A stretch of DNA of 57,324 nt, counting the filler, from Malassezia furfur (taxonomy: Eukaryota), in the NCBI GenBank assembly GCA_052055015.1. It is 3 parts of 3 records of this genome, joined end to end, with 100 filler letters (N's around TTAATTAATTAA, not from the genome) between each part and the next. Parts side by side here need not be neighbours in the genome. Positions count along the whole stretch, not along the records: positions 19,287 to 38,338 come from JBQJIT010000197.1; positions 38,439 to 57,324 come from JBQJIT010000199.1; 1 more part is not named here. One strand, given 5' to 3'. The notes beneath the pieces were generated by a model. The model made no database searches. It was not told the DNA's origin and saw only the letters and a list, made by a program, of their open reading frames with translations. Position 1 is the stretch's first letter. Every line of letters starts with the position of its first letter. The translations under genes and the position numbers were made by a program. Of this stretch, positions 22,201 to 57,183 are shown piece by piece.

Positions 22201-24808
22201 GTGCGCCGACAGCGCGGGGTCGTTCAGGATGGTGATCAGCGCCTCGATCGCCACGTTCTGGTAGTACTCGTCCGTGCTCGTGCCGATCATCGTCGCGAGC
22301 TCAAACAGATCCGTCGTGCCCGCCGGGCCGCCCGCGGACGTCGCCGAGACCGTGTTCGACTCGAGCCCGTTCTCGAGCAGCTTGTGCCGGTACGGGTCGA
22401 GCGCGCCGAGGATGCCGAGCACGCGGATCGTCTCGCGGCGCACGGGCGGCGCCTGCTCCGTCTTGAGGATCTTGACCATCGAGCCGAGCAGCGTGGGGTA
22501 CGCCAGGTACGGGTTCATCACGTACCCCGTGTTGCTCGCGATGCGCCCGAGCGTCTTGAGCGCCGCGTCGCGCTTGGCCAGCGACGAGTGCACCGGCACG
22601 CTCGAGAGCTGCGTCACGGTGAGCGACACGAGCTCGTCGAGGTGCGGCTTGAGCTCCTCGCCGCCGACGCGCGCGAGCTCGCCGAGGCACTCGAGCACCC
22701 GCGCCGACACGCCGGGGTGCGGGTCGTTGGCCTTCGGCAGGAGCACCTCGAGGATCGTCAGCGCGTAGCTCTTCACGAGGCGCTGCGACGCCTTGACCAC
22801 GCCGGTGAGCAGCTTGGCGATCTCCTCCTTGTGCCGGCTCGCCGTCGAGTACTCCAGGCCGGTGAGCAGCTGGATGAGCACCTTGCGCAGCGACGGCATG
22901 ACGTAGGCGGGGTTGTGCTTCGCGAGGCGGCCGAGGATGCCGATCGCCACCTCGCGCACCGCAAACTCCTCGTCGTTTAGCGCGATAAAGATGGAGCGGA
23001 TGTACTCGGTCTGCGCGAGGTGCCGGTCAAAGTGCTCGTCCAGCACACTCAGCACCGTGTACCGCAGCTCCGCGTCGGGGTCCGCGATCGCAACCGTGAT
23101 GAGCTTGTCGAGCACGTCGTTGAACACCTCGATCGCGTGCATGCTCGTCTGGTAGCAGATCGGGTCGTTGACAAACATGTGCGCGCACGTCACCGCCGCG
23201 GCCTTGCGCACCTCCTTCGACTCGAGCTCGAGGTACGGCAGCGTCGCGTCGCGCACAAACTCGTTCAGGATGTGCCCGCTGAAGTCGAACGAGCCCAGCG
23301 TCTGCAGCGCAACGGTGAGCAGCTCGGCGCCCTTCGCGTCCGGCGCATTGTTGATCACAAACGGCTGCACCGGCGTCCGCCGCGGGAGCGGCGCACCGAG
23401 CGGCCGGTACGGCACGCCGATCAGGATGTGCGACAGCATGTGCAGCAGGCGCTCCTGCACGATCGGCAGCAGCGTCGGGATCGCCTGCACGATCTGCTCG
23501 AGCGCAGACACCAGCGCGGTGCTCAGCCCGCACGCAAACATCATGTCGAGCATGTCGTGCACGTCGCGCTCCACCACGTCGCCGACCGCCGCGACGAGGT
23601 GCCCGATGCAGAAGAACGTCGGCGCCTCGGGCGGCGCATTCTTCTTGCCCTTCATCTGCAGCGACTCGCGCGCGGCCTGCATGATCGGCTCCACGAACGG
23701 CGCCATCTTGGGGCCCATCGCGGTCGACACCAGGCCGATCGCCTCGAGCGTGTCGCTGTACGCCTCCTTCGTCGACTGGTTCCGCTCGCGCCCGAGCTGC
23801 TCAATGAGCGCATGCATCACCGGGCCGAGGTACTCGTCGGCAAAGTACTGCGGGTCGTACGCGGCGAGCACCGGGATCAGGTTCGTCACCGTGCGCTTGA
23901 TCAGCGGGTCGCGGTGCCGGTGCAGGCGCAGAATCAGCTCGCACGTTCGGTGCAGCCGCGTGCGCATAAACGTCTTCGAGTGGCGCAGCAGCTTGAGGAT
24001 CGCCAGCAGGCTGCCGTGGATCGTGTCGACCGAGGCGTCCTTGAGGCCCTGCTCGGCCTCGTCGTAGATCGTCTCGTACGCCTGCGTACCCATCTGCTTC
24101 TCGCGCTTCGAGATGATCTGGAAACACGCGCCGAGCGCCTCCGCGGCCGCCTCGCGCACCGCGACTTTCGGGTCGCGCAGCGCGACCCAGATGTGGTCAA
24201 TCACACGTCCGACGTAGGCATGGAACAGGTACGGCACGTTGCGCGCGATCTCTTTGATGATCAGCACCGCCGCATACCGCCCGTTCTCGTTGCGGTCGCC
24301 CTGCAGGAAGTCGAGCGCACGCAGCACCTCGAACTCGATAAACTGGTCGCCCAGCGAGTGCCCACCGTGCTTCGACACGCGGCCCAGCACCTTGGCCGCG
24401 GCAATCATCACCTGCGGGTCATTGCACGGCAGGTTCGGCTTGAGATATTGGTAGAAGCGGTACAGCCGTGCGCTGTTGTCCTCGCTCTCGAGCCCAATAA
24501 AGTTCTCGATCGCGGTGATGCCCCCGAGCTTGCTCGCGGTCTGCACGCTGTGGGTGAGCTCGATGATGCGGCGGTTCAGCTCATTGTTGAATGCCTGGAG
24601 CCGCTCGCCCTTGAGCTCCGAGGTCATGTACGACGCAAAGCTCCCGAGCTCCTTGCCCGCCTTCGCACGCGTGTCCTTGTCGCTGGGTGAGCCGTCGTGT
24701 GACGTACCGGCTCTTGAGCTCTGTGAAGATCCGCGACAATGTCTCGGACGGCTGCATCGACTGTGACACGACAGACGGTGAGCTCGTGATCGACATGGGG
24801 GAGATCAT
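19287..24808 (-). CDS. TOR1: TOR kinase (HEAT repeats and FAT domain; FRB and kinase lost at contig end); 25-nt intron 24683-24707
   Basis: Motifs LRESPSHALRAC, YAKALHYKE, LQDTLRLLTLWF and HPQALVYPLTVA. Intron GTACGT..CTCAC.CCAG joins ELKSR/DKDTR in frame. Start ATG is 24808 or 24796. Confidence 0.95.
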
Positions 24809-25368
24809 CTCGGTATCCCGCGCGGCTTCCTCGCCGCGTCGCAATCGCCCCCGGGCCGCGCTCGTCGACGGTACTGGCTCGAGCGTACCGCGTAATCCCC
24901 GGGCATGTTGCCGGGCACCACTAGGCCCCCCCGCCTGCTCGCTGACAAAGCGATGCCCGCGGCGCGTGGCGTGCCGCGTCAGGGGCTAGAGGGGGTTTTT
25001 TAGTTTTCTTCGCGTGCCACGGCCGCTTCGCGTGCGACCATCACCTGTCGCGCAGTTCGCTCCCAGTAGCCTACCAACCTGTCCGCCTCTACGAAGCGCG
25101 TGAACGACTGCTTGCAGCGCACCTCGTGTGCGCGTCGTCAGTGTGTCAGGCCCACACGGCTGGGCATCCTCCTGTTTATTCATCACACCGTCCGATCCCA
25201 TGGACGACTGGCTGAGGGAAATGCAGGACAGATTGATTGCGGAGCCACATTACACATTACGTCGCCGCTGATCGGTGCTGCGGCGTAAGGTTGGCGCCGC
25301 ACATCTTCCCCCGTAGCCGCTGCCCGTAGCGCCCACGCCCCTCCACGTACGCCTCCACTTTCCCCACG

Positions 25369-27744
25369 ATGAGTAGCCCGCTGGTGTTTGCCTCTGAGCT
25401 CGCGGGACACACGGGCGACGTGCGTGCGCTCGCGTCGCACCGCACGCCGGACGGCATCACGCTGCTGCTCTCCGGCTCGCGCGACCAGACCGCGCGCCTG
25501 TGGATCCGGCGCACGGACGGGTCGTTCGAGAGCGTCGTCATCGACAACAGCGGCAACGGCTTTGTGAACGCTGTGGCGTTCTTTGAGGATATCGACGGGA
25601 AGCGTACGTGCGGAAACTGACGTCGCAGTGTACGCCCTGACAGGCGGGCAGGACGCGCTCATTAATGCGTACCTCGTGTCGATCAGCGGCAACGGCCACG
25701 TCAAGGTGTCGGGCTCGCCGCGGTTCACGCTCGTGGGCCACGCGGACAACGTGAGCACGATCGGCGTGTACGGCAGCGAGTACATCGTGAGCGGGTCGTG
25801 GGACGCGACCGTCAAGGTGTGGAAGCACTGGGAGTGCGTCGAGACCTACACCAAGCACGAGCTGGCGGTGTGGAGTGTGCTGCCGATCGACGCCAACCGC
25901 TTCGTGTCGGCGTCCGCGGACAAGGGCGTATACCTATGGGCGATCGAGAAGCCGCGCGAGCTGCTCGCGGCGTACACGGGCGCGACGCAGCCCGTGCGTG
26001 GCCTCGCACAGCTCTCCTCGTCGGCGCTCGCGGCGTGCGGCAACGACGCACAGATTCGCGTCTACCCCCTCGACGCCCAGGGCGACGTGCCGCCGCAGGC
26101 GAGCATGGGCGGGCAAACGAGCTTTGTGTACGCGCTCGCCGCGCTCGGGCAGGATACGCTCGTGAGCAGCGGCGAGGACCACACGCTCCGGGTGTGGCAG
26201 CGCGGCGTGTTGGCCCAGGTCATTACGCTGCCGGCCATCTCGTTGTGGTGCGTGTGTGCGCTGCCGAACGGCGACGTGGCGTGCGGCACAAGCGACGGGC
26301 AGGTGCGCATCTTCACGCCGGACGCCGCACAGACGTCCGCGGAGCGCATCGCCGCGTTCGAGGCGTCGGTCGCCGCGCAGGTGCTGGCGGCCGCCGAGAT
26401 CGACGCGGACGTGCCGAGCGGCGAGCGCACGCTGCTCGACCAGCCGGGCACGCACGAGGGCGCGACGTGCGTCGTGCACGACGGCAGTCGCCGCGAGGTG
26501 TACCGCTACAGCACGCACGCCCAGGCGTGGAAGCGCATCGGCCAGATCACCGAGGCGGCCGGCGCGTCGCAGAAGAAGATGCACAACGGCCAGGCGTACG
26601 ACTACGTGTTTGACGTCGACGTCGAGGACGGCGCGCCGCCGCTCAAGCTGCCGTACAACGCGAACGAGAACCCGTACGAGGCCGCCCAGCGCTTCCTCAG
26701 TACGTACGAACTGCCGGCTACCTACCTCGACCAGGTCGTGCAGTTCCTTGAGAAGAACACACAGGCGGTCGGCCTCGCGCCGCCGCCGGCCGCCGCCGAC
26801 CCGTACACGGGCGCGTCGCGGTACACGCCGGCGCAGACGTCCACGGCACCCGCCGCGCCGCTCGACCCCTTTACCGGGGCCGGGGGGCTGACGAGCGCTG
26901 CGCGTTCGCTGCAGGTGCTGCCACACCAGCAGTACCTCGCGTTCGGCCAGGCGAACGTCGGTGCAGCGCGCGCCAAGATTGCCGAGCTCGCGGGCGCAGA
27001 TGCGCCGCTGTCGGACGCGCAGGCCGCGGCGCTCGATGCGCTCGTCGACGCGCTGCAGACCGGTGCGCCGGCGCGCATCGATGTGGTGAGTGCGCTGCTG
27101 TCCACGTGGCCCCTTGCGAAGCGCTTCCCGCTGCTCGACCTGCTGCGCGTCGCGGCGGGCAAGCCGAGCGCGGCGCCGTTTGCGACGTTTGCCACCGACG
27201 CGCTCGTCGGCGCCGACTGGGACGGCCTCGCGACGCAGGCCGACCGCAAGGCCGCCGAGACGAATGCGATGCTGGCGCTGCGCACGCTCGCCAACGGCTT
27301 CGTGGCGCCGCGCGGCGCCGAGGCCGTCGGCGACATGGCGCTCGAGACGCTCGCCACGCTGCAGCAGCCGCCGTGGGACGTGCTGAACAAAAACGCGCGT
27401 ATTGCGCTCGCGACGATTGCGCTCAACTTTTCCGTGCTGGCGGTGCGCGCGACGTCGTTTGCGCAGGGCGAGCTGCTGCTCGCGCTGATCACAGAGGTAC
27501 GTCGCCCACACTCACCCAGCTCCTTGCCTCGGACAGCGACAGCGAGACGGCGTACCGCGCGCTGATGGCCCTCGGAAACCTTGTACGTTGTTCTGCCTAA
27601 CATTAGCTCTACTCTTCCGCAGGCAGCGCGTTGAGCGCTGCATCACGCCGCACCGCCCTCGACCTCGCGCAGGCCTGGGCGACGCGCGCGCCCGAGGCGC
27701 GTGTGACGACAGTGTGTGCGGACCTTGCGCAGCTGCAGCCCTAG
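25369..27744 (+). CDS. DOA1: Doa1/Ufd3/PLAA ubiquitin homeostasis protein (WD40-PFU-PUL); introns 25604-25628 (25 nt), 27497-27519 (23 nt), 27583-27606 (24 nt)
   Basis: GHTGDVR and SGSWDATVKVW WD repeats; YDYVFDVDVEDGAPPLKLPYN PFU motif. Splicing restores DSETAYRALMALGNL. Confidence 0.92.
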
Positions 27745-28844
27745 AGGGGGCGGCCGTAGTCGTCGATATGCAGCCGTGCCTGCCGCACGCGCCAACACAG
27801 GCACAGCACGAGCAGGATGGCCTGCAGCGTGCCGGCAGCAATGTACGCCAGCAGCGATGTCCAGTCGGGGCCCTCGCGCGACGCCAGCGCATACACGAAC
27901 AGCACCATGCCGGGCACCTGCAGCATCATCGTCGGAATGCTCAGGCTGCGCACGAGCCGCGCACGTGCCGTGTGCACAATCTGCGGCAGGTACTGCAGCA
28001 CGGCGAGCACCGTGCCGGTGATCCCCAGGAAGCGCGCCCAGTGCCGGATGTAGCGGTGGTGCGCGTGCATCGCGAGCAGCGCCGTGGTCACCACCGCACA
28101 AAACACCCAGAAGCCCGCGGTGATCCACGCGAGCGTCGTGCCCAGGTGCCATTCCTGCACGGTGCCCGCCTTGCCCGTGATCTCTTCCTGCTCGCCGGGC
28201 AGGTAGTACACCTCGAGGATGCGCCGCATCGCGCGGGGGATGTTGCGGTACGTCGTGTGGTCGCGTGCAGCATGCGTCTCGTGCGGGCGGATGTCGACGT
28301 CGGGCGACACCGCTCTATAGCTCTGGTTGAAGTGCGAGTGGATCTCTTCCAGGTCACTCTCAGACGCCGACGACTCTTGCCCATCGTCCGCCTCGGCGGG
28401 CGGACGCAGGCGCTCAGTCTCGTGCGGCGCACCCTGCTGGCGGCGCACGCGCCGCGCGCGGCGCAGCGGCGAGTCGTCCACGACGTAGTACAGCAGGAAA
28501 AGCACAAAGCTGCGTTAGTCACACCGCACGTACATGGCCGTGAACATGAACCACTGCAGCGACACCTGCAGAATGCCCATCATATGCTCCAAGCAGCTCA
28601 GGCCACTCAGCTTCGCGCAGCACCGCACAATCGGCCACTGCAGCACAATCACATTGAACATGGCACACGCGCTCGACGTCGCGCCCAGGAACAGAAACCA
28701 AGGCGAAAGACCCACGGACGAACGCGAGAGACGAATGCGCATTGCCTGGGGGATGTACGAAAGCACCACACCCACGCACACCACGGCTGCAGCCGCAAAC
28801 GCGGGGCCGTTGTGCGGCAAATCGCACTGGTCCTTTCTCCACAT
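27741..28844 (-). CDS. PQ-loop repeat membrane protein; 24-nt intron 28510-28533
   Basis: SYIPQ and QYLPQ motifs with hydrophobic helices. Intron GTACGT..CTAAC.GCAG removes an in-frame TAA. Confidence 0.85.
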
Positions 28845-29416: not shown

Positions 29417-30482
29417 CTCCTATTGGCCAACTGCTTGTTCGCATTGGAAAAGTCGCGCACGATGATCTCGCACTTGACCGTGTCGCACAGCTTCTTGGAT
29501 GCTTGCTTGATGGCCGGCGGGAACAGCGTAAGGCCCGCGGCGCGCTCCACGCTTTCGACTGGGTCAGCTGTGCGCGCAACCTACCGTCCGTCTCGAAGCT
29601 GCGCAGCGGCGCCGAATCCGGAATCATGCTGTTTGGCACCACAAACGCGCCAAGCGCCATGGGCGCGCCGCCCAGGCCGGCCTTGGCGATCAGCGAGCCG
29701 CTCTCACCCGCCTTGAGGCCCGTGCCCAGGATCACCTTGGCAAAGTGCGTCGGCACCGACACACTGGGCGGCGAGCCAATCACCTCGTACGACACCCGCC
29801 ATTTGCCGTCGGACGTCTGACGCGGCAGGTACAACGGGATGGTGAACACGTAAAGGTCATCAAACTTGCTCGTGAGGCGGCGCACAAAGTCTTCCGTGTG
29901 CGCCCAGTAGTCGCGGTTCATACCTGCGCCCACCTGCGGCGCAATGTTGCTTAGCAGGAACGTTTCGTTCATCGCCGCCTGGCTCGACTTGACGTCGGCC
30001 GCCGGCACCATATGCCCACGATCGTAACCCGAGCGGAAGTAGGCCGCGTTGGTCGAGCGGAACAGCTCGGGGATGCGCATGTCTTCGGTAAAGAACGAGT
30101 TGGCACGGTTCGCCCCGTCCGGCCCAGGCTTGCGCTGGATCGACGCAGCGGTGAGGTGCTCGGCCGTCCAGTTAGGGTGTCGCAGACGACGGTCGTAAGA
30201 CGACACATAGCCCTGGTGCTGCAGGAGCTGGTCCACGGGGCCTGGGTTGCCCGACAGCGCCAGCGCATCCGATAGGGGCGCCACGACGGCAGCGGTCGGT
30301 ACAGCGCCAGGTACGGCGGCCGGCGCTGTGGCCGGCGCGGGCGTGGGGGCGACCGCACCCGCAGGAACGGTCGTCGTGGGCACAGCGCTCGGCTTGGCGC
30401 TCGAGCGCTGCGCGAAATATGCCACGCTCCCCCCCAGCACCGCACCGCCAGCAAAGAGGCCCACCTGCGCTGCCACGCTCAT
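29413..30482 (-). CDS. NUC1: Mitochondrial endonuclease G; 26-nt intron 29559-29584
   Basis: YDRGHMVPAAD active site, TFLLSNIAPQ and VPTHFAKV. Splicing restores VESVERAAGLTLF. Confidence 0.92.
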
Positions 30483-30577: not shown

Positions 30578-31998
30578 ATGACCGTCAAGGAGCAGATCGA
30601 GCAAATCCAACAACGTCTCGGCAACCTGGGTGACACGGTGAAGTCCACGGCGTCGTCGGCGGGCCATGCTGTGGCCACGGCGACCTCGCGTAAGCACGTC
30701 TCGTCTGAAGAGGTGATGACGCTCGAGAGCGACTACAGCGCGCACAAGTACGTCGCGTTCGCACTGACCCCAGCTACCACCCGCTGCCTGTCGTGTTCGA
30801 CCGTGCGTATGGCGCGCGCGTCTGGGACCCCGAGGGCAACGAGTACCTCGACTTCCTCTCGGCGTACTCCGCGGTGAACCACGGCCACTGCCACCCGGCA
30901 GTGGTCGGCACGCTCATTGCGCAGGCGCAGCGCCTGACACTCTCGTCGCGTGCCTTCTACAACTCCATGTTCGGCCAGTTTGCCAAGAAGATCACCGAAA
31001 TGTTCGGTTTCGACATGGTGCTGCCCATGAACACGGGTGCGGAGGCGGTCGAGACCGCCATGAAGCTCGCGCGCAAGTGGGCCTACGTCAAGAAGGGCGT
31101 TCCGGAGGACAAGGCGCGCATCTTCAGCGCCTCGGGCAACTTCCACGGCCGCACGTTTGGTGTGATCAGTATGAGCACCGACCCCGACAGTCGCACCGGC
31201 TTTGGTCCGTTCCTGGAGCGTGTCGGTCCGGTGGTGGGCGACATCAAGATTCGCTACGACAATGTCGAGGACATTGAGCGTGCGCTTGAGAAGTACGGCA
31301 AGGAGACCGCCGCGGTGCTTCTCGAGCCCATCCAGGGTGAGGCCGGCATTGTGGTGCCGTCGCCCGAATACTTCCCGCGTGTGGCGGAGCTGTGCAAGAA
31401 GCACAATGTGCTCCTCATCATCGACGAGATCCAGACGGGTCTCGGTCGCACGGGTAAGATGCTGTGCTACGAGCACTACGGCGTGCGCCCTGACATTGTC
31501 ACGCTCGGCAAGGCCCTCAGCGCAGGTGTGTACCCTGTCAGCGCTGTGCTTGCCGACAAGGATGTGATGCTCTGCATCAAGGCCGGCGAGCACGGTAGCA
31601 CGTACGGTGGCAACCCGCTGGGTAGCGCCGTGGCCATGACGGCACTGGACGTGCTTGTCGACGAAAAGCTGCCTGAGCGCGCCGAGCGCCTCGGCAAGCA
31701 GTTCCGCGAGGGTCTCTCCAAGATCCAGAACCCTCTTCTTTCGACTGTGCGCGGTATGGGTCTGCTCAACGCCATCGTTATTGATGAGACGAAGAGCACC
31801 AAGAAGCGCACGGCCTGGGACCTGTGCCTTCTGCTCAAGACCAAGGGCCTTCTCGCGAAGCCCACTCACCAAAACATCATCCGTCTTGCCCCTCCGCTAG
31901 TCATCACCGAGGAGGAGCTCGAGCGCGGCCTGAAGGCGATCGAGGAGGCGCTCAACGAGCTCGACACCGTCGAGGTCATTCCGGGGGCCGAGCACTAG
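30578..31998 (+). CDS. CAR2: Ornithine aminotransferase; 26-nt intron 30748-30773
   Basis: Splicing restores [36 protein letters not shown] and [10 protein letters not shown] motifs. Confidence 0.95.
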
Positions 31999-32050: not shown

Positions 32051-32868
32051 ATGACATCGGACGCGAACGAGAAGGCGAACGGCGCACCGGCACAGCCGGA
32101 GACGGCGAAGGAAGAGCGGAAAGACATCGATCCTTCTACGGGACGCTCGGTGCCCTACAAAAAGGCCAACCAACCTTTCCTTGTACACCAGCGTTATCTC
32201 GCCAAGCAGGCACGCAAGGAGGAGCTCAAGAAGGCGCGCGCCGAGGGGCGGACACTGCCGCCGTCGGAGCTGGACGACTACGATGATGATGCGCCGATTG
32301 CTCGTTTCTTCGGGATTACGTTTCTGGTCGCGTTCATCGCGATCGGTATTGCGGTGCTGAGCGGCCTCTTTTTCGCCGACGACGCACTGTGGGGTTATCG
32401 CGGGAAATGGACCAACTGGCGCACCTACATTCCGGTACGTGGGCACCTATCTGACCCCAGGCGGAGCAGCATGTGTTTACCCCCGACCGACTGATGGTGT
32501 TCAACGGCGACGACGACTCGCTTCCCGTCTTGGTGCGTGCCTTGCAACTGACTCCGCAGCTCTCTATCAAGGGCGATGTGTTTGACGTAAGCGCCGGTCG
32601 GATGCATTACCGGAAGGGCAGCCCGTACCACAACCTCGCGGGCCGTGATGCGTCGCGCGCATTTGTCACGGGCTGCTTTGCGACGCACCTGACGCACGAC
32701 CTGCGTGGGCTGAGTCGCCAAGAACTGGACGCGCTCGACAACTGGCACAAATTCTTCAAGGAGCACCACACCTACTACAAGGTGGGCCGCGCGCGTCTTC
32801 CGCCCATCGACCCAGCCTCGCCGGTCCCAGAGCCGTGCATGACGAGTCGTGGACAAAAGCCTGCGTAG
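32051..32868 (+). CDS. Cytochrome b5-like heme/steroid-binding (MAPR family) membrane protein; introns 32435-32460 (26 nt) and 32533-32559 (27 nt)
   Basis: One TM segment, then LSIKGDVFDVS and AGRDASRAFVTGCF. Confidence 0.85.
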
Positions 32869-34191: not shown

Positions 34192-35392
34192 CTACTTTTG
34201 CAAGCCGAGCAACGTGCGAACCTCGCGCACGGTTTGGGCAGCGCGCTGGCTTGCCTTGGTGCGGCCGAGCTCGGCGACTTCGTCGAGGTAGCCCGGTTCG
34301 TTCACCAGCTTGGCATACTCAGTCTGGAACGGCCGTAGCGCCTCGACGATGCTCTCCGTGAGCACCTCTTTAAGCTGGGCGCCCGAGCCGCCCGTGACAT
34401 CTTGGAGCACGGCCGCGACGCTGGCGGGGTCGGGATCGCCTTGTACGCCGACGAGGCGCTCACGCACGGTGCCGCCACCAAATGCCGCGAGGATCGAGAT
34501 AAGGTTGCTCATACCTGGCCGGCGCTCGGGTTCGTAGGTGATGCTTCGTTCGCTATCGGTCACAGCCCGCCGGACCTTGGCGCGGATTTCCTCCGGGGAG
34601 TCGGTCACGAGGATGCGAGAGTTGGCATCGGGTGCCGACTTGGACATCTTTTGCTCCGGATTGCGCAGGGAGAGGATGCGCTTCGTGGGGGTGAGCATGT
34701 ATTCCGGCTGCCGAAAGTAGCGCTTCTTGACCGCGTTGTTGAACTGGTGTGCAATGTCGCGCGTGAGCTCGAGGTGTTGTGTCTGATCCTCGCCGACCGG
34801 GACATGCGTGCCGTGGTAAATGAGGATATCGGCCGCCTGAAGCACCGGATAGGAGAAGAGGCCGAGCTGCAGCTGTGCCTCGTTCACCTTGTCGCTGTCC
34901 TGCACGGTCGCGAGTTTCGACTTCCAAGTTGTCATACGCTCGAGCCGCCCAAACGACGTGACGCAGGAGAGGAACCACATGAGCTGCGTGTGCTCCGGCA
35001 CCTCGTCCTGGTGGAACAGCGTGCATCGATGCGGGTCGATGCCGGTCGCGACCAGGGCGGCCATCATGTTACGCCGGTCCTGGTAAAGCCGCGTGGGGTC
35101 CTGCGGTACAGTAAGGGCATGCAGATCGGCTAGGAAAAAGAAGAGCTCGTCGTCTGGCGCGGCCGTGTTCTGCAAATCCACCCAGCTCTTGAGCGCTCCA
35201 AGGTAATTGCCGATCTGCGTGAGTGGGCATGCGACGTACGTGCGGAATGCCCGTCGGCTGAATGCCGGACACGATCACGCGGCGTGCCTTGCCGCTCGGT
35301 GCCCTGGCCGCCTGCGCCACGGCCGTGGCCAACGTGCGCGCCTGGCCCAGCGGCGCACGGTGCCGGCGGCCCAAGCTCAACGCCCAACGCAT
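34192..35392 (-). CDS. MSW1: Mitochondrial tryptophanyl-tRNA synthetase; 25-nt intron 35215-35239
   Basis: Splicing restores SGIQPTGIPH/IGNYLGA (HIGH motif); KMSKS, YPVLQAADIL and VPVGEDQ motifs; Arg-rich presequence. Confidence 0.93.
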
Positions 35393-36953: not shown

Positions 36954-37663
36954 TTACTTCTGCCGGGACACAATCGCCTGGAGGCGGATGTTGTCCTCAA
37001 CACGGCCGTGGTTGTTCACGTACTTGAGGTAGCAGCCGTCCTTCATGATACGGTTGCTCTGGCGCGCCTCCATGTAGTCCTCACGGCTCATGTCCGTGAA
37101 GCCCCACTTCTTGGAGACAATGATCTTCTGGCGACCCGCGAACTTGTAACGCGAGCGGCGGAGGGCCTCGATGGCCACCGCGCGGTTCGCGTCACGGGTA
37201 CGGATCGACAGGAGCACCTGACCAATGTCCACACGGGCGACAAGACCGTAGGGCTTACCGAAGGCACCACGCATACCCGTCTGGAGACGGTCGGCACCAG
37301 CGCACGAAAGCATCTTGTTGATGCGGATGACGTGGTAGGGGTGCACACGCACACGCAGGTGGAACGAGTCCTTACCGGTGGTCTTGGTCATGTACTTGTT
37401 GGCACAGATACGCGAAGCCTCGAGAGCCTCCGACGTGATCTGCTGGTGCTCGTCACACACCAAGTGCACACAGAAGGGGAAGTCGTCCACGGAAGCCTTC
37501 TTGCGGCCCAGGTCGTAGATGCGGATCTTGGGGTCCGGCACACCACGGTTGTAGCGCGACTTGGGCTGCACAGGGGTTAGCGTCTGTTCTCCCACACGTC
37601 GCAAATACGTACGTAAGGCTTGTTCTTGCAGTAGCGGTAGCAACGTGCAGGGCGGCGTCCCAT
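36954..37663 (-). CDS. RPL10: 60S ribosomal protein uL16; 47-nt intron 37566-37612; 5'UTR intron 37664-37709
   Basis: Spliced N-terminus [59 protein letters not shown] motif. Confidence 0.96.
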
Positions 37664-37914
37664 CTGCGCGTGTTAGGATCGGGTCCACGGCGAACGCCAC
37701 CGTACGTACCTTGACTTCTGGCTCAGACGAGGGAGGGAGGAAACGGCGAGCGGCGGACGGCCGAGGGATCACGCACCGTTTCGCACGCCACATACAGTTC
37801 TTTGTAAAAACCACGTGAGCCGCCGCGCCACGGCCTCCACTTCCCCACGCGGGCCTGGGACACGCCAAGCCACGCGAGCTCTGCGCCGGGGCCTCCCAAA
37901 GATCGCGTGCATGC

Positions 37915-38934: not shown

Positions 38935-40743
38935 CTACATGTCTTTACACACGGTCGACGTAGCAATAATACCTTCCACAGTCTTGGCGATTGACAGAAT
39001 TTTTTCTTCCTGGAATCGTCGACCAACCATTTGTATACCGATAGGCATCCCCTCGTATTTCTCGGGCAAATCTGCATGAGCGTAGTACACATACACGCTT
39101 CATATACGGCCTTATCCATCTCACTGTTAAATTCACTTCGTTGCTCTTGAGGTAAAGCCTCTGCTGTCGCTAGAGGCATTGAAATACTGGTATATTGTAG
39201 CACATTCACGACAGCCGTATACCCTGGGTTAGAAGATTACGAACCGAGATAATTTGGACCACCACGGTCCCAGCTAACAGCTGCTGTGTTAGGCATTAGG
39301 AGAGCGTCCATAGATCTTTTGGCCTCAGTAACATTTGCTGTCGCATTCCATGCATGATCATATTCTCTCGTGTAGGCGACGCGATCGGCACTCATTTTCC
39401 AGACCTCTTCTGCACTCACGACCTTCCTGTCCCCCCGTGCTTTGCCCATAATTTCGGCCACTTCGTCAATGAGTGGCTCTCCTGATTCCTCGCAAAGTGA
39501 ATGAATTGCATTGCCGCCGCACTGCGTCATCGTCGACATCTGCATTAATACAGATCAACTCACCCATAGGTCGTTAGCTCTTTGATGTGAAGGGGGTTTG
39601 AACATAATCACTTCGTGACCGGCTTGACGAAGGGCATTCGCAATTTGTTCCAATGCGTTGCGAATTGGTGGTTGAGGAGACACATACCCATCATCAAGGA
39701 GTAGTCCAAAAACAAGTCGACTCGGTGCCTTGTAGGGCCTCCAAGGAAGCTCCACAACCTCGGGATCTATTTCCCACAACTTGGAATCCAACGCGATCTT
39801 GGTGAAAAGCTCCAGGCAAGCAAGAGTATTTCCCATTGGTCCTATCACCGATGGAATAGACAGTTGTCCGACGATCTGCGTTAGCATGAAATTTAGATCA
39901 TACCGTTCTTCGCTTTCCGCGGGGAGAGAAACGGCCCGGAGAGGCTTTCAATCCCCAAATACCATTAAGACTAGATGGAATACGAACAGAACCACCTGTA
40001 TAAGTGCTTCACATACCAATGTCTGTACCAACCCCCAGTAATGCTCCACGTTGCGCGAGCAGAGAACCTTCCCCCCCTGAGGAGCCACCAGCCGAACAGC
40101 ATCGATTGTATGGATTGCAGGTCCGTCCAATAATGTAGTTTACAGTTTCGATTGACTGCATAAGCCATGGACGTACCATTACGCTGGTTGGGACATTGGT
40201 TTTTACATGGAAAACTGCACCAGATGCTCGAAGAACTGGGACAATACCATCTTCGTCTTCCTTTTTTGCAGGACCATCGAGCCAGGCAACAAATCCAACA
40301 GACGTTTCATACCCTTCGACAAAAAATTGATCCTTCAAGGAAATGGGAACACCGTGAAGAGGGCCAATAGTCTTTCCCGTCCGTTGGAGGTGCTCATCCA
40401 GACGGTCAGCCTCGTTTAATGCAGATTCAAGCATAAATTCACACAAACAATTTGTCTAAATTAGTATTGTACTCACCAGCTGATGGGCAATCGCAGCACG
40501 GTGAGCGAATGACTCTGTCACCTTTCGTGAAGTAAGCTGTCCCGATGCAATGGCTGCGGCTAGAGGTTCAAGATCCATATCAGTTATACGCCGTTCCTCC
40601 TCACTGAGCTGACTGGCGACGTATTTGATGACATTAGGCAGGCTTTCAATGTTAGGTACATTCGTTAAGTGCCATTTCTTCGGTATCGCCTTCAGCACAC
40701 TTGCCCGTTTCACATTGGCGTGTAGCTCCCATTCTTTGCTCAT
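38935..40743 (-). CDS. Amidase-signature family enzyme (acetamidase/FAAH-like), 549 aa, 8 exons
   Basis: Introns 40456-40476, 40156-40176, 39996-40016, 39876-39903, 39540-39563, 39224-39244, 39072-39094. The spliced 1650-nt CDS has GPLHGVPISLKD, GGSSGGEG, GTDIGGSVRIP and GMPIGIQMVGRRFQEE. Confidence 0.9.
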
Positions 40744-42615: not shown

Positions 42616-44593
42616 ATGTCGAATACCCACACTGGTGAGAATGTCGATCCAACGGCGAATGGTGCAGGCGAAACCATTGAGGTGCCTGGCACCCCAGAAA
42701 TGACGGTTGCTGACACGGGCAACGGTAACCTCGAGGTTCTGGAAGCGTCGCAGGGGCCGCCCAAGAGGGTGCCGAAGCCAACGAAGATTGATCTGCCTCC
42801 TTCGCAAGCCCAGGACGGCACTAATGCATCGGACAGGCCTCCGACCCCTAACTACACGTATGCAGAAGACCCCCAGGGACATCTGAATCCAATTTATGAG
42901 GGCAGCGGGCCGGGTTATGAGCCTGAGCCGAAAATGCGCCGAGAGAAGCGTCCCGACGGCAAGATTGAGCTGTCCGGTCGGATGGCTCCGAAGGTTGTCG
43001 GGTTTGACTGGCCAACCTGGAAGAAGTGGATGATTTTGTGTGTCGTTTTCATGGTGCAAGTCAGCATGAACTTCAACACTTCTGTGTACCCCAACGCGGT
43101 TGCGCTCATCCCTGAGGACGAGCGTTTCCGCGGTGTTAGTGAGCAGGGTGCTCGTGTGGGTCAGATGATTTTCCTGGTCGCCTATGCGTTCGGATCTGAG
43201 GTACGTGCTTATTCTGTGAAGAACAGGTGTATTAACACAATTAGCTTTGGGCGCCTTGGAGTGAGGAGCTCGGCCGCTGGCCTGTCATGCAGCTCTCACT
43301 GTTCCTTGTGAACTGCACGCAAGTGTGGGCAGGCTTTGCGCCCAACTTTGAGAATCTCATCGCAGCCCGTTTCTTCGGTGGTCTCTTCACGGCCGGTGGC
43401 AGTGTCACGCTCGGCATTGTTGCTGACTTGTTCGACGTCGATGACCAACAATATGCTATTGCTTTCATTGTACTGTCGTCCGTGGCTGGTACTTCCGTGG
43501 GCCCGCTCATTGGTGGCTTTATCTCGGGTGGTGTCAAGAGCGAAAAGAAGTACCTTACGGCTCTCTACTGGATCTTCTGGGTCCAGCTTATCTTTGGTGT
43601 TGTCACGCAGCTGGTCCACATGTTTGTTGTGCCTGAGACACGTGAGACGATCCTGTTGGACCGCGAGGCGAAGCGGCGCCGCAAGGCCGGTGAGACCAAC
43701 GTGTATGGTCCGAATGAGCTGGAGCACCACCGGTTCAGTCCGAAGAAGATTCTGATTACTTGGCTGCGTCCATTTGACATGCTTGTTCGTGAGCCCATCG
43801 TGCTCTCTCTTTCGCTGCTCAGTGGTGTAAGTCTTGGACTTTTTGGCGCGATACTAACTGTCAGTTCTCGGATGCGCTCATTTTCGTGTTCTCTGAGTCG
43901 TTCGAGACTGTGTTTGCCAAGTGGAACTTCACCACCATTGAGACTGGTCTTGCGTTCATCCCGATTAACCTCGGATACGTCTTTGGGTTCTTCTCCTTCT
44001 TCCCTACGATCCGGAACCAGCGCAGGATCCGCAAGGAATCGCCTGATGTTCTTACGCCGGAGATCCGTCTATGGTGGCTGCTGTGGACGGCGCCGCTGGA
44101 GCCCCTTGGCCTGTTTGGTTTCGCATGGACTTCCCTGGGTCCGCCTTACACCCACTGGATTGCGCCGATGATTTTCGAGGTTCTGATTGCAATTGCCAAC
44201 TATGCCATTTACATGGCCACGATTGACTATATGGTTGCTGCCTATGGTCCGTACTCTGCTTCGGCTACGGGTGGTAATGCGCTTGCCCGTGATTTCCTTG
44301 CTGGTATTTCTGCGATGTACTCGGTCCCTATGTACACCCAGATTGGCTCCAACGAGCATCTGCAGTCTGCCTGGGCGACCACTATCTTGGCCATTCTCGC
44401 CATCGTTGTTGTGCTTCCCGTGTTCCTTTTCTACTGGAAGGGTGAGCTGATTCGTTCTCGTTCTCCGTTCGCTCAAGACATCATGAAGGCGCGCAAGACG
44501 GACGACCCTGTGCTTGTGGAACCGCCGGAGCAGATGGACGAGGAGAAAATGATTCACCACCACAAGCACAATCAACAAGGAGACCATGAATAA
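42616..44593 (+). CDS. MFS transporter, DHA1 family; introns 43201-43244 (44 nt) and 43827-43864 (38 nt)
   Basis: WPTWKKW, LWAPWSEELGRWP, PETRETILL and YSASATGGN motifs; splicing joins three ORFs in frame. Confidence 0.9.
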
Positions 44594-45475: not shown

Positions 45476-46514
45476 ATGTCTTCCAAATATGATGAGCGGC
45501 CCAGACCATATGCAGATGGCTGGAAATTTAAGGATCCTTCCGAGATGACCTATGCCCAGCGGCAGATCATCAAGAGGCAGATGTTGAACCCAAGTCCCAA
45601 AGAATACGATTATCCAAAGCCACAAGGCAAAGTCCCTGTCTTTCTGGAGCGGGACCAACACTTGCGCATCTTTCCCTTCGTGGTGCTTCCCATCGCAACG
45701 CGGTGGTTGTATATGTGGCTGACCGGGTGGACGGCTCATCCTGTGGCGGTCTATGTGCTGACCGTCGTGTTCAATGCAACATTTGTCAGACATTACTTCC
45801 AGCGACTGCGTGAATACACTCAGACCTACGGGTTCCTGGATGGCAATGTCGCTCGCGATGCGATTCCCGAATCGATGACCGGAAAACTCTATAAGGAAAT
45901 GATGACGGGTCTATTGGGCCGGCCTCTCATGGTCATGATGCTTGCGTATGATCGGCATGCTATGTCCAGGCTGGACTGGTGGCTCCCGCTGCAGATTGGT
46001 TTCTTCACTCTGATCGCCGACTTTGTCTATTACTGGGTGCATCGGGCGACGCACGAGGTTGCTGAGTTGTGGCACTTCCATCGGCGCCACCATACGACCA
46101 AACACCCCACCTCCTACCTTCTCGCCTTTGCAGACGAGCCGCAAGAAATCTTTGACGCGTTTGGCACACCCATTTTGGCCTATATGTTCTACCCGATCCA
46201 TTTCGATGCGCTGTACATCTGGGCCATGTACTTCCTGACGATTGAAATCATGGGCCACTCAGGGATCCGCATGTATTACCCTGCAGTGCTGGTACGTACG
46301 GTGTGACACTGACCGCGCACAGACCTCGAGTATTTTGCGCCCATTTGGTTGTGAAATTGTGATTGAGGATCACGACCTGCACCACCGGCACGGATGGCGT
46401 GAGAGCTACAACTACGGCAAGCAGTCGCTTCTGTGGGACGCATTATTCGGCACGAATGGCGATCGTTTCGAGACGCGCGTCGACAACATCGACTGGGACC
46501 ACCGCGTCAAGTAA
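45476..46514 (+). CDS. Fatty acid hydroxylase / sterol desaturase superfamily protein; 31-nt intron 46292-46322
   Basis: His boxes HRATH, HRRHH and HDLHH; NYG...LWDALFGT motif. Confidence 0.88.
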
Positions 46515-52787: not shown

Positions 52788-53100
52788 TCCGACTCCCATC
52801 GTTGACGTAATTTCCCAATAGACAATCTATATTGACGCACCCCTGGCCAGGTACGCAGCGACTTTCTCGCGTGTGTGACCCAATTGTCAATGCACTTTTC
52901 TGCTGACTCAGAGCGCAGGTCCGGATTCGTGGCGATCCCCCCCTTCTGATTGGCGGACGCTTGCCCATCAGGTCGGGCATGCCAGACACAGCCTCATTGA
53001 CTGGCACGCGCGAATTTTTTTCGGGAATTAAACTGCGGGAATTATCCTTTAAGAACAGGGGAAGGGTTTGAGTCGTGTGTTTTTATCCCGAACTTGTACG

Positions 53101-54525: not shown

Positions 54526-54611
54526 GTACACCTTGTATTTTCGAGCGTATTCTCCTTGTATATCGTATTTGATAGCTACAAGACTATTTCATCTTCTTAT
54601 TACTTGGCCGC

Positions 54612-55457
54612 TCACAAAGTCACCGTACCCTGAATCACCAGGCTGCAATGCCCTGTAATCCAGATGCTCTTGTCTGATTCAGTGACGATACCAATGTCCG
54701 CCTCGCGCTTGAGGATGGTCCCCTGACGCACCGTATACGACGGCGGCGCAAGCTGGCTCCCCGTGAGCCATTTTGCGAGACCTCCGTTCAAACTGCCCGT
54801 CGCCGGATCTTCACCGTTCGACACGACAGGGGCGATCGCTCGCACCTCGTAGTCGGCCGGTCCGTTTTGGCTATGCGGCCCAACGAGCCCCACAAACGCG
54901 TTATCGAGGGCAGGAAGGTCAGGGCGGACCGAAAGTACCGTCTCTGCACTGTCCAGCAAGATTCCCATGAAGCCCGGTCCGTTGTCCACCCAGTTCGAGG
55001 CCACGACACGGGACTTGTCCACGCCGAGCGCCTTGAGGACCTTTTCGAGGATTGCATCGTCAATCGCGCCACTGCGTAACAATTCGGGTGCTTGGAATCC
55101 CAGCTGGGCATCGTCACGGCGCAGTTTCACGAGTCCGATGCCACACTCTTGCGTAATGTACTCCGGTGACGAGGGTTGCCCACCCCGGGCAAGCCACGCA
55201 TAGGCGCTACCCAATGTGGGGTGGCCCGCGAATGGCAGTTCCTTCCCATCCGGCATGAATATGCGGAGTCGGTAATCTGCTCCTTTCTGGGTCGGCTTCA
55301 TGAGGAACGTCGTTTCAGACAGGTTGGTCCATCGCGCGAACGACTGCATCTGCGCATCGGACAGGCCATCAGCATCGTGCACCACAGCGACCGGGTTCCC
55401 CAACGTCGGGGTTTTGGAAAAGACGTCCACCTGCGAGAACGGGCGCGACTGCGTCAT
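54612..55457 (-). CDS. PhzF-family (phenazine biosynthesis-like) isomerase
   Basis: VDVF....GNPVAVV, NLSETTF, ELPFAGHPTLG and EDPATGS motifs; intronless. Confidence 0.9.
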   Translation of the reverse strand: MTQSRPFSQVDVFSKTPTLGNPVAVVHDADGLSDAQMQSFARWTNLSETTFLMKPTQKGADYRLRIFMPDGKELPFAGHPTLGSAYAWLARGGQPSSPEYITQECGIGLVKLRRDDAQLGFQAPELLRSGAIDDAILEKVLKALGVDKSRVVASNWVDNGPGFMGILLDSAETVLSVRPDLPALDNAFVGLVGPHSQNGPADYEVRAIAPVVSNGEDPATGSLNGGLAKWLTGSQLAPPSYTVRQGTILKREADIGIVTESDKSIWITGHCSLVIQGTVTL

Positions 55458-55848
55458 TTCTTGCGCTATCGAACTAAACGGTGCTCGGCCAACCACGCGG
55501 CAAACTTCAACCTCTGCGCTAGATGCTCGTGAGGTATTTCTGCACGGACCGCCTGTGGACTGACTCGAGCATCGATTTCCACGTGGTTTCTTACTCGCCA
55601 TATCATTGGTCGGGCGTCTTTGTCGCATCGACCAAGGCCAGCATACTCCTTGTCGATTGGGTCTACTGCGCCAAAGTTACTCTGAGCCCCGCATCAGGGG
55701 AACAAGAGCCTATGCGTTATTGATTTGGTTGATTCAAGGACTAGTCTTGAGGACCAGAAAGCTGACCCTCGTTACTTTAACGGGTATCTATTGATAACTG
55801 CCTTGTGCCCACCCTCTCTGCTAGTCCCTTCCACTGGGAGTTCCCAGC

Positions 55849-57183
55849 ATGTCCGTCCCTGATATTCCTGGGACCAAGCTGCCTGAGGGGCAGCAATTGA
55901 TGTTTCTTCGTGACCATGTGCGTGAGCTTTGTCGACTCAACACGATCAAGTACGTATGTCTCGCGGGCTCTTTCTAACCCGTGAGGTTCCCCGGAGCCCA
56001 GCCCATTTCGTTCAACAAGCAGTCGCTGGATACTCTCTTGACGGAAGAGTGCGTGTCGATGTCCTAACGGTGCAGTTTCTGGGTGTGCGAGAAGTCCGAT
56101 GGCCAGCGCGTGCTTGTGCTGATTGTCGTCCCGCCTGCTACGGGCCAGCAAGAAGTCTTTTTGATTGACCGCAAGAACAACTACTACCAAGTTCACAACC
56201 TCTCTTTCCCCCACCACAACCCTGCCTCGCCGGAAGCTGTCGCTTTTGGGGGCCAGCGCACGAACACGCTCGTCGATGGCGAGCTGGTCATCGATACGAT
56301 TTCGCCCGAGCAGACCAAATTGCGGCTTCTTTTGTTCGATTGCCTCGTGATTGACGGCGAGAATGTGACGCGCAAGCCGTTCGGGCGGAGGTATGCGCGG
56401 CTGAACAGTCACCTGTACCCCCCGTACCACTCCTATATGAAGAAGAACGCGATGGCGCAGGTCATGGCACCGTTTGAAGTGAAGATCAAGCGCATGGATC
56501 TCGCGTACGGGATCGAGAAGGTGCTTCTGGACGGGCAGAAGCACCTGCAGCACAAGAGCGACGGTCTGATCTTTACGAGCTTCCCCAGCGGGTACACGTG
56601 TGGAACGGATCCCAAGATCCTCAAGTGGAAGCCGCCGCAGGACAACACGATCGACTTCAAGGTCGAGCTGCGCTTCCCCCCCGATCTGGAAGATGACCCG
56701 AGCGGTGCTACGCCGGACTACCGTGCCAAGCCCTTTATCAAGCTGATGCAGCACTCGCACGGCCACCAGCATGAACTGTTTGATTATCTCGAGATGAGTG
56801 ATGAGGAATGGGAGCGGTGGAAGCAGTCGGGCGAGCAGCTCGACGACCGGATCGTCGAGTGTGCCTGGCGTCCTCGGGAAGAGGGTTCCGAGCGGTTCGA
56901 GTGGCATATTTTCCGCATTCGTGACGACAAGCAGCATGCCAACCACAAGTCGACCGTGAAACGCATCTTGGAAAGCATCAAGGACGGTGTAGAGGAGCAG
57001 GAGCTGATTGACCTGGCGCCGGCCATCCGTGCCGCATGGAAGACGCCCGAGCGGGAAAAGTTCCGCGAGACGATCAACCACTCCCGGAACAAGGGCAAGA
57101 ATGTCTGTCCCTTTATTCGCGGGGGCGGCGGTCCTGGCCCCCCCATGCGGCGCGGGGGGATGCCCGGCATCAACCGCCGGTGA
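55849..57183 (+). CDS. CEG1: mRNA capping guanylyltransferase; introns 55950-55985 (36 nt) and 56049-56075 (27 nt)
   Basis: Splicing restores KFPGAQPISF and EDFWVCEKSDG (KxDG); TLVDGELV, HKSDGLIF, LKWKP and IRDDK motifs. Confidence 0.93.

Follow-up and report, generated by a model that had tools for sequence, protein, structure and literature searches.

The introns in a 57,324-nt stretch of Malassezia DNA (the window) are very probably ordinary U2-type GT-AG introns that have been compacted to near the smallest workable size in a Malassezia close to M. furfur. Each intron would retain three signals: a 5' hexamer, which is mostly GTACGT, a CTNAY branch motif and the first usable AG downstream, with no space for a polypyrimidine tract. 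Here, the distance from the branch to the 3' end would be held at 6–10 nt, and two lower bounds would apply: approximately 15 nt ahead of the branch A and a 5-nt tail behind it. Together with the branch A itself, these bounds would result in a minimum length of 21 nt. They probably reflect steric constraints on a spliceosome that is largely conventional, and are no evidence of a new one.

The introns and their support

The window comprises three contigs joined end to end and, as judged by homologue comparison, its source is a Malassezia close to M. furfur: the CEG1 product shares 92% identity with that of M. furfur, and the amidase shares 75% with that of M. psittaci. Gene models were built independently from Pfam-mapped ORF fragments and junction sequences. 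This led to 24 introns, all GT..AG, of which 18 form a tiny class of 21–28 nt, and this is the same set that had been counted in an earlier note on this DNA. The remaining six form a longer class. Intron lengths have a mean of 28.3 and a median of 25.5 nt, and GC content ranges from 0.29 to 0.65. Ten introns have a length that is a multiple of 3 and two of these, MAPR intron 2 and amidase intron 2, are stop-free if retained. When the introns are removed, a single ATG-to-stop ORF results in all 11 complete genes modelled, and TOR, which is truncated at the contig end, has an open frame once the phase is corrected. The architecture had been described as window-wide; it extends over two of the three contigs and not to the first, where no intron was detected in its eight genes. 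The span assigned to it, 24683..56075, begins exactly with the TOR intron and ends exactly with the 27-nt CEG1 intron.

The comparison DNA consisted of the syntenic, Malassezia-like metagenome loci L004, L006 and L009, with L007 used for DOA1 intron 2. The putative branch A was called from the motif, as the A of the 3'-most YTNAY, and its position is given from the 5' end (nt) and from the 3' end (negative numbers). The introns of the second contig are as follows:

24683..24707, minus: TOR intron, 25 nt; donor GTACGT; CTCAC, A at nt 20 (-6). L006 has a continuous orthologue that matches the junction as spliced; in L004, this site holds an intron of 27 nt.
25604..25628, plus: DOA1 intron 1, 25 nt; CTGAC, A at nt 17 (-9). 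Continuous ORFs without the intron in L004, L006 and L009; the spliced protein aligns across the junction with 10 homologues.
27497..27519, plus: DOA1 intron 2, 23 nt; CTCAC, A at nt 18 (-6). Same-site introns in L004 (25 nt), L006 and L007 (both 27 nt); protein aligns with 10 homologues.
27583..27606, plus: DOA1 intron 3, 24 nt; CTAAC, A at nt 18 (-7); retention gives an in-frame stop. L004 has a 24-nt intron at the same site; protein aligns with 10 homologues.
28510..28533, minus: PQ-loop gene intron, 24 nt; CTAAC, A at nt 19 (-6). L004 and L009 lack the intron, with zero extra bases and a matching peptide.
29559..29584, minus: NUC1 (EndoG-like nuclease) intron, 26 nt; donor GTAGGT; CTGAC, A at nt 21 (-6). 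L004, L006 and L009 lack it; their continuous ORFs equal the spliced junction.
30748..30773, plus: CAR2 (ornithine aminotransferase) intron, 26 nt; CTGAC, A at nt 20 (-7). Absent from L006 and L009; L004 has a 26-nt intron at the same site.
32435..32460, plus: MAPR (cytochrome b5-like) intron 1, 26 nt; CTGAC, A at nt 20 (-7). Absent from L006 and L009; 28-nt intron in L004.
32533..32559, plus: MAPR intron 2, 27 nt; donor GTGCGT; CTGAC, A at nt 19 (-9). Absent from L006 and L009; 24-nt intron in L004.
35215..35239, minus: MSW1 (mitochondrial Trp-tRNA synthetase-like) intron, 25 nt; CTCAC, A at nt 20 (-6). Absent from L006; same-site introns in L004 (24 nt) and L009 (37 nt).
37566..37612, minus: RPL10 (uL16) intron, longer class, 47 nt; CTAAC, A at -12. 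Same-site introns in L004 (44 nt), L006 (61 nt) and L009 (62 nt).
37664..37709, minus: putative RPL10 5'UTR intron, longer class, 46 nt, abutting the ATG; CTAAC, A at -10. L004, L006 and L009 have GTACGT...CTAAC...AG elements at or just upstream of the ATG.

The introns of the third contig are:

40456..40476, minus: amidase intron 1, 21 nt; donor GTGAGT; CTAAT, A at nt 16 (-6). Unspliced, it is a 7-codon insertion relative to three homologues; spliced, the alignment is gapless.
40156..40176, minus: amidase intron 2, 21 nt; CTTAT, A at nt 16 (-6).
39996..40016, minus: amidase intron 3, 21 nt; donor GTATGT; CTTAT, A at nt 16 (-6).
39876..39903, minus: amidase intron 4, 28 nt; donor GTATGA; CTAAC, A at nt 23 (-6). 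It separates HSPs by a frame shift; the alignment is gapless once spliced.
39540..39563, minus: amidase intron 5, 24 nt; donor GTGAGT; TTAAT, A at nt 19 (-6).
39224..39244, minus: amidase intron 6, 21 nt; donor GTTCGT; CTAAC, A at nt 16 (-6).
39072..39094, minus: amidase intron 7, 23 nt; donor GTATGT; CTCAT, A at nt 18 (-6).
43201..43244, plus: MFS transporter intron 1, longer class, 44 nt; TTAAC, A at -10; ORF logic only.
43827..43864, plus: MFS transporter intron 2, longer class, 38 nt; donor GTAAGT; CTAAC within TACTAAC, A at -8; ORF logic only.
46292..46322, plus: fatty-acid hydroxylase (FAH) intron, longer class, 31 nt; CTGAC, A at -11; ORF logic only.
55950..55985, plus: CEG1 (mRNA guanylyltransferase) intron 1, longer class, 36 nt; CTAAC, A at -9.
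56049..56075, plus: CEG1 intron 2, 27 nt; donor GTGCGT; CTAAC, A at nt 19 (-9).

Homology supports all 18 tiny junctions, either through orthologous DNA or through alignment of the spliced protein. On the second contig, each of the 10 tiny introns is confirmed in one of these ways, and for eight of them at least one orthologue is intron-less, its continuous ORF being the predicted spliced sequence. The remaining two, DOA1 introns 2 and 3, have same-site introns in other species in addition to the 10-homologue alignment. On the third contig, the amidase protein aligns without gaps to its homologues across all seven junctions once spliced, and the spliced CEG1 protein is gapless across both junctions relative to its counterparts from M. 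furfur, M. pachydermatis and Ustilago. At the level of sequence and homology, the tiny introns of the window are confirmed as real and have the features of U2-type GT-AG spliceosomal introns.

Splice signals and the position of the putative branch A

The donor is GTRNGT in 16 of the 18 tiny introns, in agreement with the earlier note, in which most donors were GTRNGT-like; the two exceptions have the hexamers GTATGA and GTTCGT. The commonest donor, GTACGT, is found in 14 of the 24 introns. All 24 introns have a YTNAY motif no more than 14 nt from the 3' end, and this 3'-proximal motif is CTAAC in nine, CTGAC in six, CTCAC in three and another form in six. The fungal branch consensus is CTRAY and that of yeast is TACTAAC. 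As controls, 2,960 other GT..AG segments of 21–28 nt were taken from both strands of the window; only 134 of these (4.5%) have a YTNAY with its A at -6 to -9, versus 18/18 real tiny introns. In the tiny class, the gap between motif and AG is just 3–6 nt and no metazoan-type polypyrimidine tract was found, which bears out the earlier description of a fused branch-acceptor element that lacks such a tract. A polypyrimidine tract is dispensable in budding yeast as well.

The A of the motif is probably the branch point. In the 18 tiny introns it is found at -6 in 12, -7 in three and -9 in three, consistent with the claim that it is usually the sixth nucleotide from the 3' end. Counted from the 5' end, it is at nt 16 in four, nt 17 in one, nt 18 in three, nt 19 in four, nt 20 in four, nt 21 in one and nt 23 in one. 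The four introns with the A at nt 16 are the four 21-mers and none of the 18 has it earlier, as had been stated. When L004, a sister Malassezia-like species, is considered, a different distribution is seen: its 11 tiny introns (23–28 nt) are equally small, but six of them have the A at -7, three at -8 and one each at -6 and -10. Across orthologous introns, the A drifts between -6 and -10. Thus, -6 is a lower bound and not a fixed design. Intron length is more closely correlated with the 5' distance (r = 0.86 in the window and 0.81 in L004) than with the 3' distance (r = 0.50 and 0.45, respectively). In L009, where the introns at shared sites are 37–81 nt, the motif A is still at -6 to -14.

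Possible size limits and the splicing machinery

The bound of 16 nt to the branch A fits all 29 tiny introns from two species, with minima of 16 in the window and 17 in L004, where the A is also never closer to the 3' end than -6. This agrees with the earlier claim, but as a floor it is not established, as both the 21-nt and 16-nt bounds come from four 21-mers that all belong to one subtelomeric amidase gene. The -6 and 16-nt floors could be the sampling extremes of a small set, with genome-wide lengths continuing below 21 nt, and this we consider possible although somewhat unlikely. The set is small, 18 tiny introns in the window and 11 in L004, and gene annotation in other species was set to accept introns as short as 15–20 nt in M. 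restricta and 10 nt in M. sympodialis. A candidate 19-nt motif match is also present in intergenic DNA, at 46769-46787. In the coding regions of the window, L004, L006 and L009, however, no motif match shorter than 21 nt was found. Further, the positions pile up at the minimum, with 12/18 at -6 and zero at -5 or -4. With the 21-mers set aside, eight of the other 14 tiny introns have the A at -6, versus the 2.9 expected if it were free to lie anywhere from nt 16 to -6 (P = 0.003). A too-close AG is also skipped in one natural case: in MAPR intron 1 of L004, an AG ending 4 nt past the A of CTGAC is passed over and the frame-preserving AG 3 nt downstream is used. The 3' site may be chosen as the first usable AG past the branch.

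The earlier note suggested that the splicing system itself is convergently streamlined. On this reading, U1 and U2 would not be co-bound on 21–28 nt, assembly would be sequential or non-canonical, and U2AF, SF1, SF3b or the snRNAs would be reduced or altered. This is improbable. It draws on geometry only, as the 21-mers leave approximately 4 nt between the hexamer and a 7-nt branch match and 3 nt between that match and the AG. Further, a C at donor position +4 mismatches the canonical 5' end of U1, and the prevalence of GTACGT (14/24) could hint at a co-evolved U1; snRNA genes were looked for in the window and related loci and none were found. Against this reading, introns of 31–47 nt with identical signals are present in the same genes and those of the congener L009 are 37–81 nt at shared sites, so that one machinery evidently handles both sizes. 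In addition, Stentor, whose introns are 15–16 nt, is reported to keep all snRNAs and most spliceosomal proteins (PMC9505925), and myxozoans, with median lengths of 22–27 bp, to keep the branch-binding region of U2 and U2AF1/2 (PMC13644364).

The third alternative, that CTNAY is a protein-binding or acceptor-context signal while the true branch nucleotide is elsewhere or variable, is very unlikely: more than one YTNAY does occur in some introns (upstream copies at nt 9 of amidase intron 5, nt 17 of amidase intron 4 and nt 11 of MFS3-1, and in the NHP2 intron of L004 a full TACTAAC whose A is nt 11) and the 18–21-nt introns of the Bigelowiella nucleomorph are spliced well without a discernible branch A (PMC6009652), but the motif fits the fungal and yeast consensus, is present in every intron of the window (24/24) and persists in orthologous introns that have otherwise diverged.

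Relation to other short introns and significance

Compact introns have precedent in the genus. The curated annotation of M. sympodialis is reported to contain 5,350 introns, which average 30 bp and of which 99% are supported by RNA-seq (Zhu et al. 2017, PMC5389616, Table 2), the median in M. restricta is given as 30 bp (M. restricta and M. arunalokei papers, PMC6473144 and PMC9241646) and a review speaks of 'very short introns' in Malassezia (PMC7426719). The window values, a mean of 28.3 and a median of 25.5 nt, are similar. As far as they were searched, what these accounts give on introns is lengths only, and branch position, the pile-up at -6 and the 21/16-nt bound do not figure there; the main text of PMC5389616 does not contain the word 'branch'. 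Very short introns are therefore an already published trait of the genus, while their internal layout, that is, branch position and length floor, seems to be new.

The likeness to heterotrich ciliates that had been drawn, a branch A six nucleotides from the end, agrees with Stentor coeruleus, where most introns are described as yielding a 10–11-nt lariat and a 5-nt tail (PMC9505925). In that species and in Fabrea salina (PMC9004412), as in the window, introns are reported to be GT-AG with a conserved branch A, a 5-nt tail and no polypyrimidine tract, the tail being shared by 12/18 tiny introns of the window and 1/11 in L004. The differences are that the ciliate lariat loop is 10–11 nt versus at least 16 nt in the window, and that ciliate introns are approximately 76% A+U and a near-uniform 15–16 nt, whereas those of the window have a GC of 0.29–0.65, are 21–28 nt with a tail to 47, and place the A at -7 or -9 as well. 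Myxozoans and dicyemids (PMC13644364) are similar in their median of 22–27 bp, an absent or minimal polypyrimidine tract and a putative branch A near the AG. Their signals are described as weak, however, with two to three loosely conserved As that lie farther from the AG as length grows, whereas the introns studied here have a strong CTNAY held 6–10 nt from the 3' end. The Bigelowiella natans nucleomorph has efficiently removed introns of a similar minimum (18–21 nt), but these have only GT-AG and no discernible branch A, unlike the clear branch motif of Malassezia (PMC6009652).

The minimum size of an intron and the cause of that limit are an open question, studied so far in ciliates, nucleomorphs, microsporidia and myxozoans, which are hard to manipulate. 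Malassezia seems under-recognized in this regard, as the list of lineages with introns below 30 bp in a 2026 survey omits the genus (PMC13644364). Introns this small also break gene models: in the public M. psittaci amidase model, the equivalent of amidase intron 6 is read through and the model ends at another intron. As Malassezia is described as transformable (PMC7426719) and has public, RNA-seq-curated annotations, the two-sided bound on the branch can be tested directly there. A bolder proposal is put forward tentatively, and we regard it as rather doubtful: in the furfur lineage, two hard steric limits (15 nt before and 5 nt after the branch A, with a 21-nt minimum) would operate, the 3' site would simply be whichever AG comes first at a distance of 5 nt or more from the branch, splicing would do without the recognition of a polypyrimidine tract by U2AF, and U1 and the GTACGT donor may have evolved together. 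If true, a transformable fungus would become the first genetically tractable model of a spliceosome that works on minimal introns.

Gene content and intron set

The window contains two identical 100-base linkers (19187–19286 and 38339–38438), each composed of N44, TTAATTAATTAA and a second N44, and it therefore represents three contigs joined end to end. The contig ends cut TOR at 19287 and the region upstream of RPL10 at 38338. The gene map, which was derived from a Pfam scan of ORF fragments, is as follows.

Genes assigned to each contig
Contig 1 (1–19186): two secretory lipases, two MFS transporters, Thi4, two OPT transporters
Contig 2 (19287–38338): TOR (partial), DOA1, PQ-loop protein, NUC1, CAR2, cytochrome-b5-like MAPR, L7Ae-family NHP2-like protein, MSW1, PEX13, RPL10/uL16
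Contig 3 (38439–57324): amidase, DUF4646 protein, MFS transporter, fatty-acid hydroxylase, four tandem polysaccharide deacetylases, PhzF-like protein, CEG1

A telomere-like hexamer repeat, reading (TCCTAA)n on the + strand, occupies the first bases of contig 3 (38439–38494). As the intron-rich amidase gene lies approximately 0.5 kb from this repeat, it is subtelomeric. The amidase fragment shares 75% identity with M. psittaci and 61% with M. pachydermatis, and the CEG1 exon shares 92% with M. furfur; judged by sequence, the host organism is a Malassezia. An Rfam search of the window and of six syntenic Malassezia-like metagenome loci (L004–L009) found no snRNA or member of any other Rfam family.

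Introns were reconstructed from frame breaks and junction sequences. This recovered 24 GT..AG introns, 18 of which are only 21–28 nt long: seven in the amidase gene, three in DOA1, two in MAPR and one each in TOR, PQ-loop, NUC1, CAR2, MSW1 and CEG1. The result is identical to the list in an earlier note, whose range of 24683–56075 runs from the outer end of the TOR intron (24683), the first tiny one, to that of the last, in CEG1 (56075). Removal of the introns produces a single ATG-to-stop ORF in 11/11 complete genes, and the truncated TOR gene is open when spliced, with its phase corrected. Ten coding introns have a length that is a multiple of 3, and retention introduces an in-frame stop in eight of these. 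The two that are stop-free if retained are amidase intron 2 (21 nt, +7 residues) and MAPR intron 2 (27 nt, +9 residues).

No intron was detected in the genes of contig 1 (1–19186), nor, across the window, in NHP2, PEX13, DUF4646, PhzF, OPT1, the four polysaccharide deacetylases, the two lipases and two MFS genes. Tandem paralogues occupy 1–19186 (two lipases, two MFS and two OPT genes) and 46987–54522 (four polysaccharide deacetylases); none of these appears to contain an intron, unlike the single-copy housekeeping genes. Two candidate introns on contig 1 were rejected. The OPT2 candidate at 15291–15319 falls in a stretch that is colinear with the tandem paralogue OPT1, and what interrupts the ORF is an in-frame TGA (15302–15304) at the position of an OPT1 Trp codon; this TGA could be a nonsense mutation, the mark of a pseudogene or a sequencing error. 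The break in Thi4 (10254–10256) is an in-frame TAA, which separates an ATG-bearing 5′ ORF from the Thi4 domain ORF, and no surrounding GT..AG solution keeps the frame.

Homology tests of the junctions

The predicted junctions were tested by homology, using orthologous DNA or protein alignment. When the amidase is compared to three Malassezia-like homologues, gaps of 7, 7, 7, 8 and 7 codons and two frame shifts fall exactly at the seven predicted introns, and the spliced product aligns to the M. pachydermatis protein without gaps at 7/7 junctions. Spliced CEG1 is gapless across both of its junctions relative to the M. furfur, M. pachydermatis and Ustilago proteins. In addition, metagenome contigs were searched with CAR2, which yielded the six loci L004–L009 (80–84% identity). 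These fall into three species groups and have the gene order TOR-DOA1-PQ-NUC1-CAR2-MAPR-MSW1-RPL10 in common. At the window intron sites they either lack an intron and have an uninterrupted ORF that equals the predicted spliced sequence, or have an intron of their own in the same place.

Window intron sites in the syntenic loci
TOR: none in L006; 27 nt in L004
DOA1-1: absent in all three species groups
DOA1-2 and DOA1-3: same-site introns in other species; ten homologues align through the junctions
PQ-loop: absent in L004 and L009
NUC1: absent in all three species groups
CAR2: none in L006 and L009; 26 nt in L004
MAPR-1 and MAPR-2: none in L006 and L009; 28 and 24 nt, respectively, in L004
MSW1: none in L006; 24 nt in L004 and 37 nt in L009

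Orthologous DNA or spliced-protein alignment thus confirms each of the 18 tiny introns to the codon, and the intron observation of the earlier note is accurate and, by these alignments, well supported. For the longer introns, related species have the RPL10 coding intron at the same position (44, 61 and 62 nt), and in each of the three species a GTACGT...CTAAC...AG element corresponding to the putative RPL10 5′UTR intron sits at the ATG or immediately upstream of it. ORF logic was the sole basis for the two MFS introns and the fatty-acid hydroxylase intron.

The public M. psittaci amidase model (P0004) includes the equivalent of intron 6 (39224–39244) as coding sequence, which adds 7 residues, and stops at intron 7 (39072–39094). 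This seems to be an annotation error caused by the tiny introns.

Splice signals and the position of the putative branch adenosine

The donor is GTACGT in 14/24 introns, so that C at donor position +4 is the norm across the window, and GTRNGT fits 16/18 tiny introns. The +4 C of GTACGT mismatches the canonical U1 5′ end. YTNAY is present near the 3′ end of 24/24 introns (CTAAC in 9, CTGAC in 6, CTCAC in 3 and others in 6). For the real tiny introns, the A of this motif is at −6 to −9, counted from the intron 3′ end, in 18/18; for the other GT..AG segments of 21–28 nt in the window, which served as a control, it is so in 134/2,960 (4.5%), and in 8/180 of the subset with a GTNNGT donor.

A stricter pattern, GTNNGT followed by YTNAYNNAG with a total length of 17–45 nt, was applied to both strands. 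Its 22 matches comprise 11 validated sense-strand introns, 1 overlapping variant and 10 antisense or intergenic matches. Two intron-like motif stretches in intergenic DNA, both on the + strand, may be UTR introns: 33059–33086, upstream of NHP2, and 46769–46806, upstream of the first deacetylase gene, the latter including candidate variants of 19 nt (46769–46787) and 20 nt. Within coding sequence of the window, L004, L006 and L009, there were no motif matches shorter than 21 nt.

For comparison, introns were harvested from L004–L009 by script. This gave 42 rows, 10 of which were dropped (GC donors, 15-nt segments and Gly/Tyr-rich PEX13 indels), and collapsing duplicates left 21 distinct introns, to which L004 TOR-1 was added using a targeted pattern. 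The L004 species has 11 introns of 23–28 nt, which is the same size class as in the window. In L008/L009 the introns are 37–81 nt, and the motif A is still at −6 to −14. These longer introns occupy the MSW1 and RPL10 sites found in the window as well as MSW1, NHP2 and TOR sites of their own. Thus, the set-point for intron size differs between congeners. In L006/L007 the introns at the locus are nearly all lost; the harvest recovered just two there, the RPL10 intron and a DOA1 intron of 27 nt.

Intron presence and absence also vary strongly between these syntenic Malassezia-like species (L004, L006 and L009 versus window 24683–37709). Contig 2 has 11 coding introns; 8 of them also occur in L004, 2 in L006 (where DOA1-3 is unmappable) and at least 2 in L009 (where three sites are unmappable), and L004 and L009 carry MSW1, NHP2 and TOR introns that are absent from the window. 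The losses between species are base-exact.

The earlier note placed the putative branch A usually at −6. In the window, this is indeed the usual position: the A is sixth from the 3′ end in 12 of the 18 tiny introns, seventh in 3 and ninth in 3, and among the 14 that exceed 21 nt, −6 occurs in 8 relative to 2.9 expected under free placement (P = 0.003). The position is not fixed, however, as in L004 the A is at −6 in only 1/11, at −7 in 6, at −8 in 3 and at −10 in 1. Counted from the 5′ end, the A is at nt 16 in 4 of the window introns, 17 in 1, 18 in 3, 19 in 4, 20 in 4, 21 in 1 and 23 in 1; in L004 it is at nt 17 in 1, 18 in 6, 20 in 2, 21 in 1 and 22 in 1. The nt-16 introns are the four 21-mers, all from the amidase gene. 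The proposed floor at nt 16 derives from the four 21-mers of this one gene and is consistent with the 29 tiny introns of the window and L004, of which 0/29 have the A fewer than 16 nt from the 5′ end. In the two tiny-intron species, length correlates more closely with the 5′ distance (r = 0.86 and 0.81) than with the 3′ distance (r = 0.50 and 0.45).

Combined, the window and related-species data show that −6 is a lower bound of the branch–acceptor distance and not a fixed design, that this distance is short throughout the genus, and that shrinkage of the introns occurs in the 5′ spacer. In the 28-nt MAPR intron 1 of L004, an AG ending 4 nt past the A of CTGAC is skipped and the frame-keeping AG 3 nt further on is used, a natural case that hints at a minimum tail of 5 nt.

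Known features and a proposed mechanism

Very short introns are an already known trait of Malassezia. M. sympodialis has 5,350 introns with a mean of 30 bp, 99% of them supported by RNA-seq (PMC5389616), M. restricta introns have a mean of 37 and a median of 30 bp (PMC9241646), minimum intron settings were reduced to 15–20 nt for Malassezia annotation (PMC6473144), and a review refers to “very short introns” (PMC7426719). In a 2026 study of the shortest introns in animals (PMC13644364), the lineages given as exceptional for introns under 30 bp are ciliates, microsporidia and dicyemids, and Malassezia is not among them. A description of branch position or minimum lariat was not found in the accessible Malassezia literature, including PMC8476143 and PMC3560662; subscription papers or supplements may have one. 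This quantitative layout, in which the motif A lies at least 16 nt from the 5′ end and at least 6 from the 3′ end, appears to be undescribed, as does the way it drifts from species to species.

In the proposed mechanism, the 5′ site would be recognised by U1 and then U6, and CTNAY by SF1 and then U2. The 3′ site would be the first AG at least 5 nt beyond the branch A. With only 3–6 nt from motif to AG there is no polypyrimidine tract, so that U2AF tract binding cannot contribute as usual. Bounds of 15 nt before the A and 5 nt after it result in a 21-nt minimum, and both look like steric limits. Canonical A-complex geometry would require a longer distance from the 5′ splice site to the branch. 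The earlier note suggested a convergently streamlined splicing system, on the ground that U1 and U2 could hardly occupy such introns together in the canonical manner. By analogy with other tiny-intron lineages, such a spliceosome is unlikely to be needed. In Stentor, the tail is likewise 5 nt but the loop is 10–11 nt (PMC9505925); the bound of a 16-nt loop therefore does not hold universally. The tiny introns of the window are most likely conventional U2-type introns, near the smallest size that a spliceosome accepts, and their quantitative layout is easy to test genome-wide.
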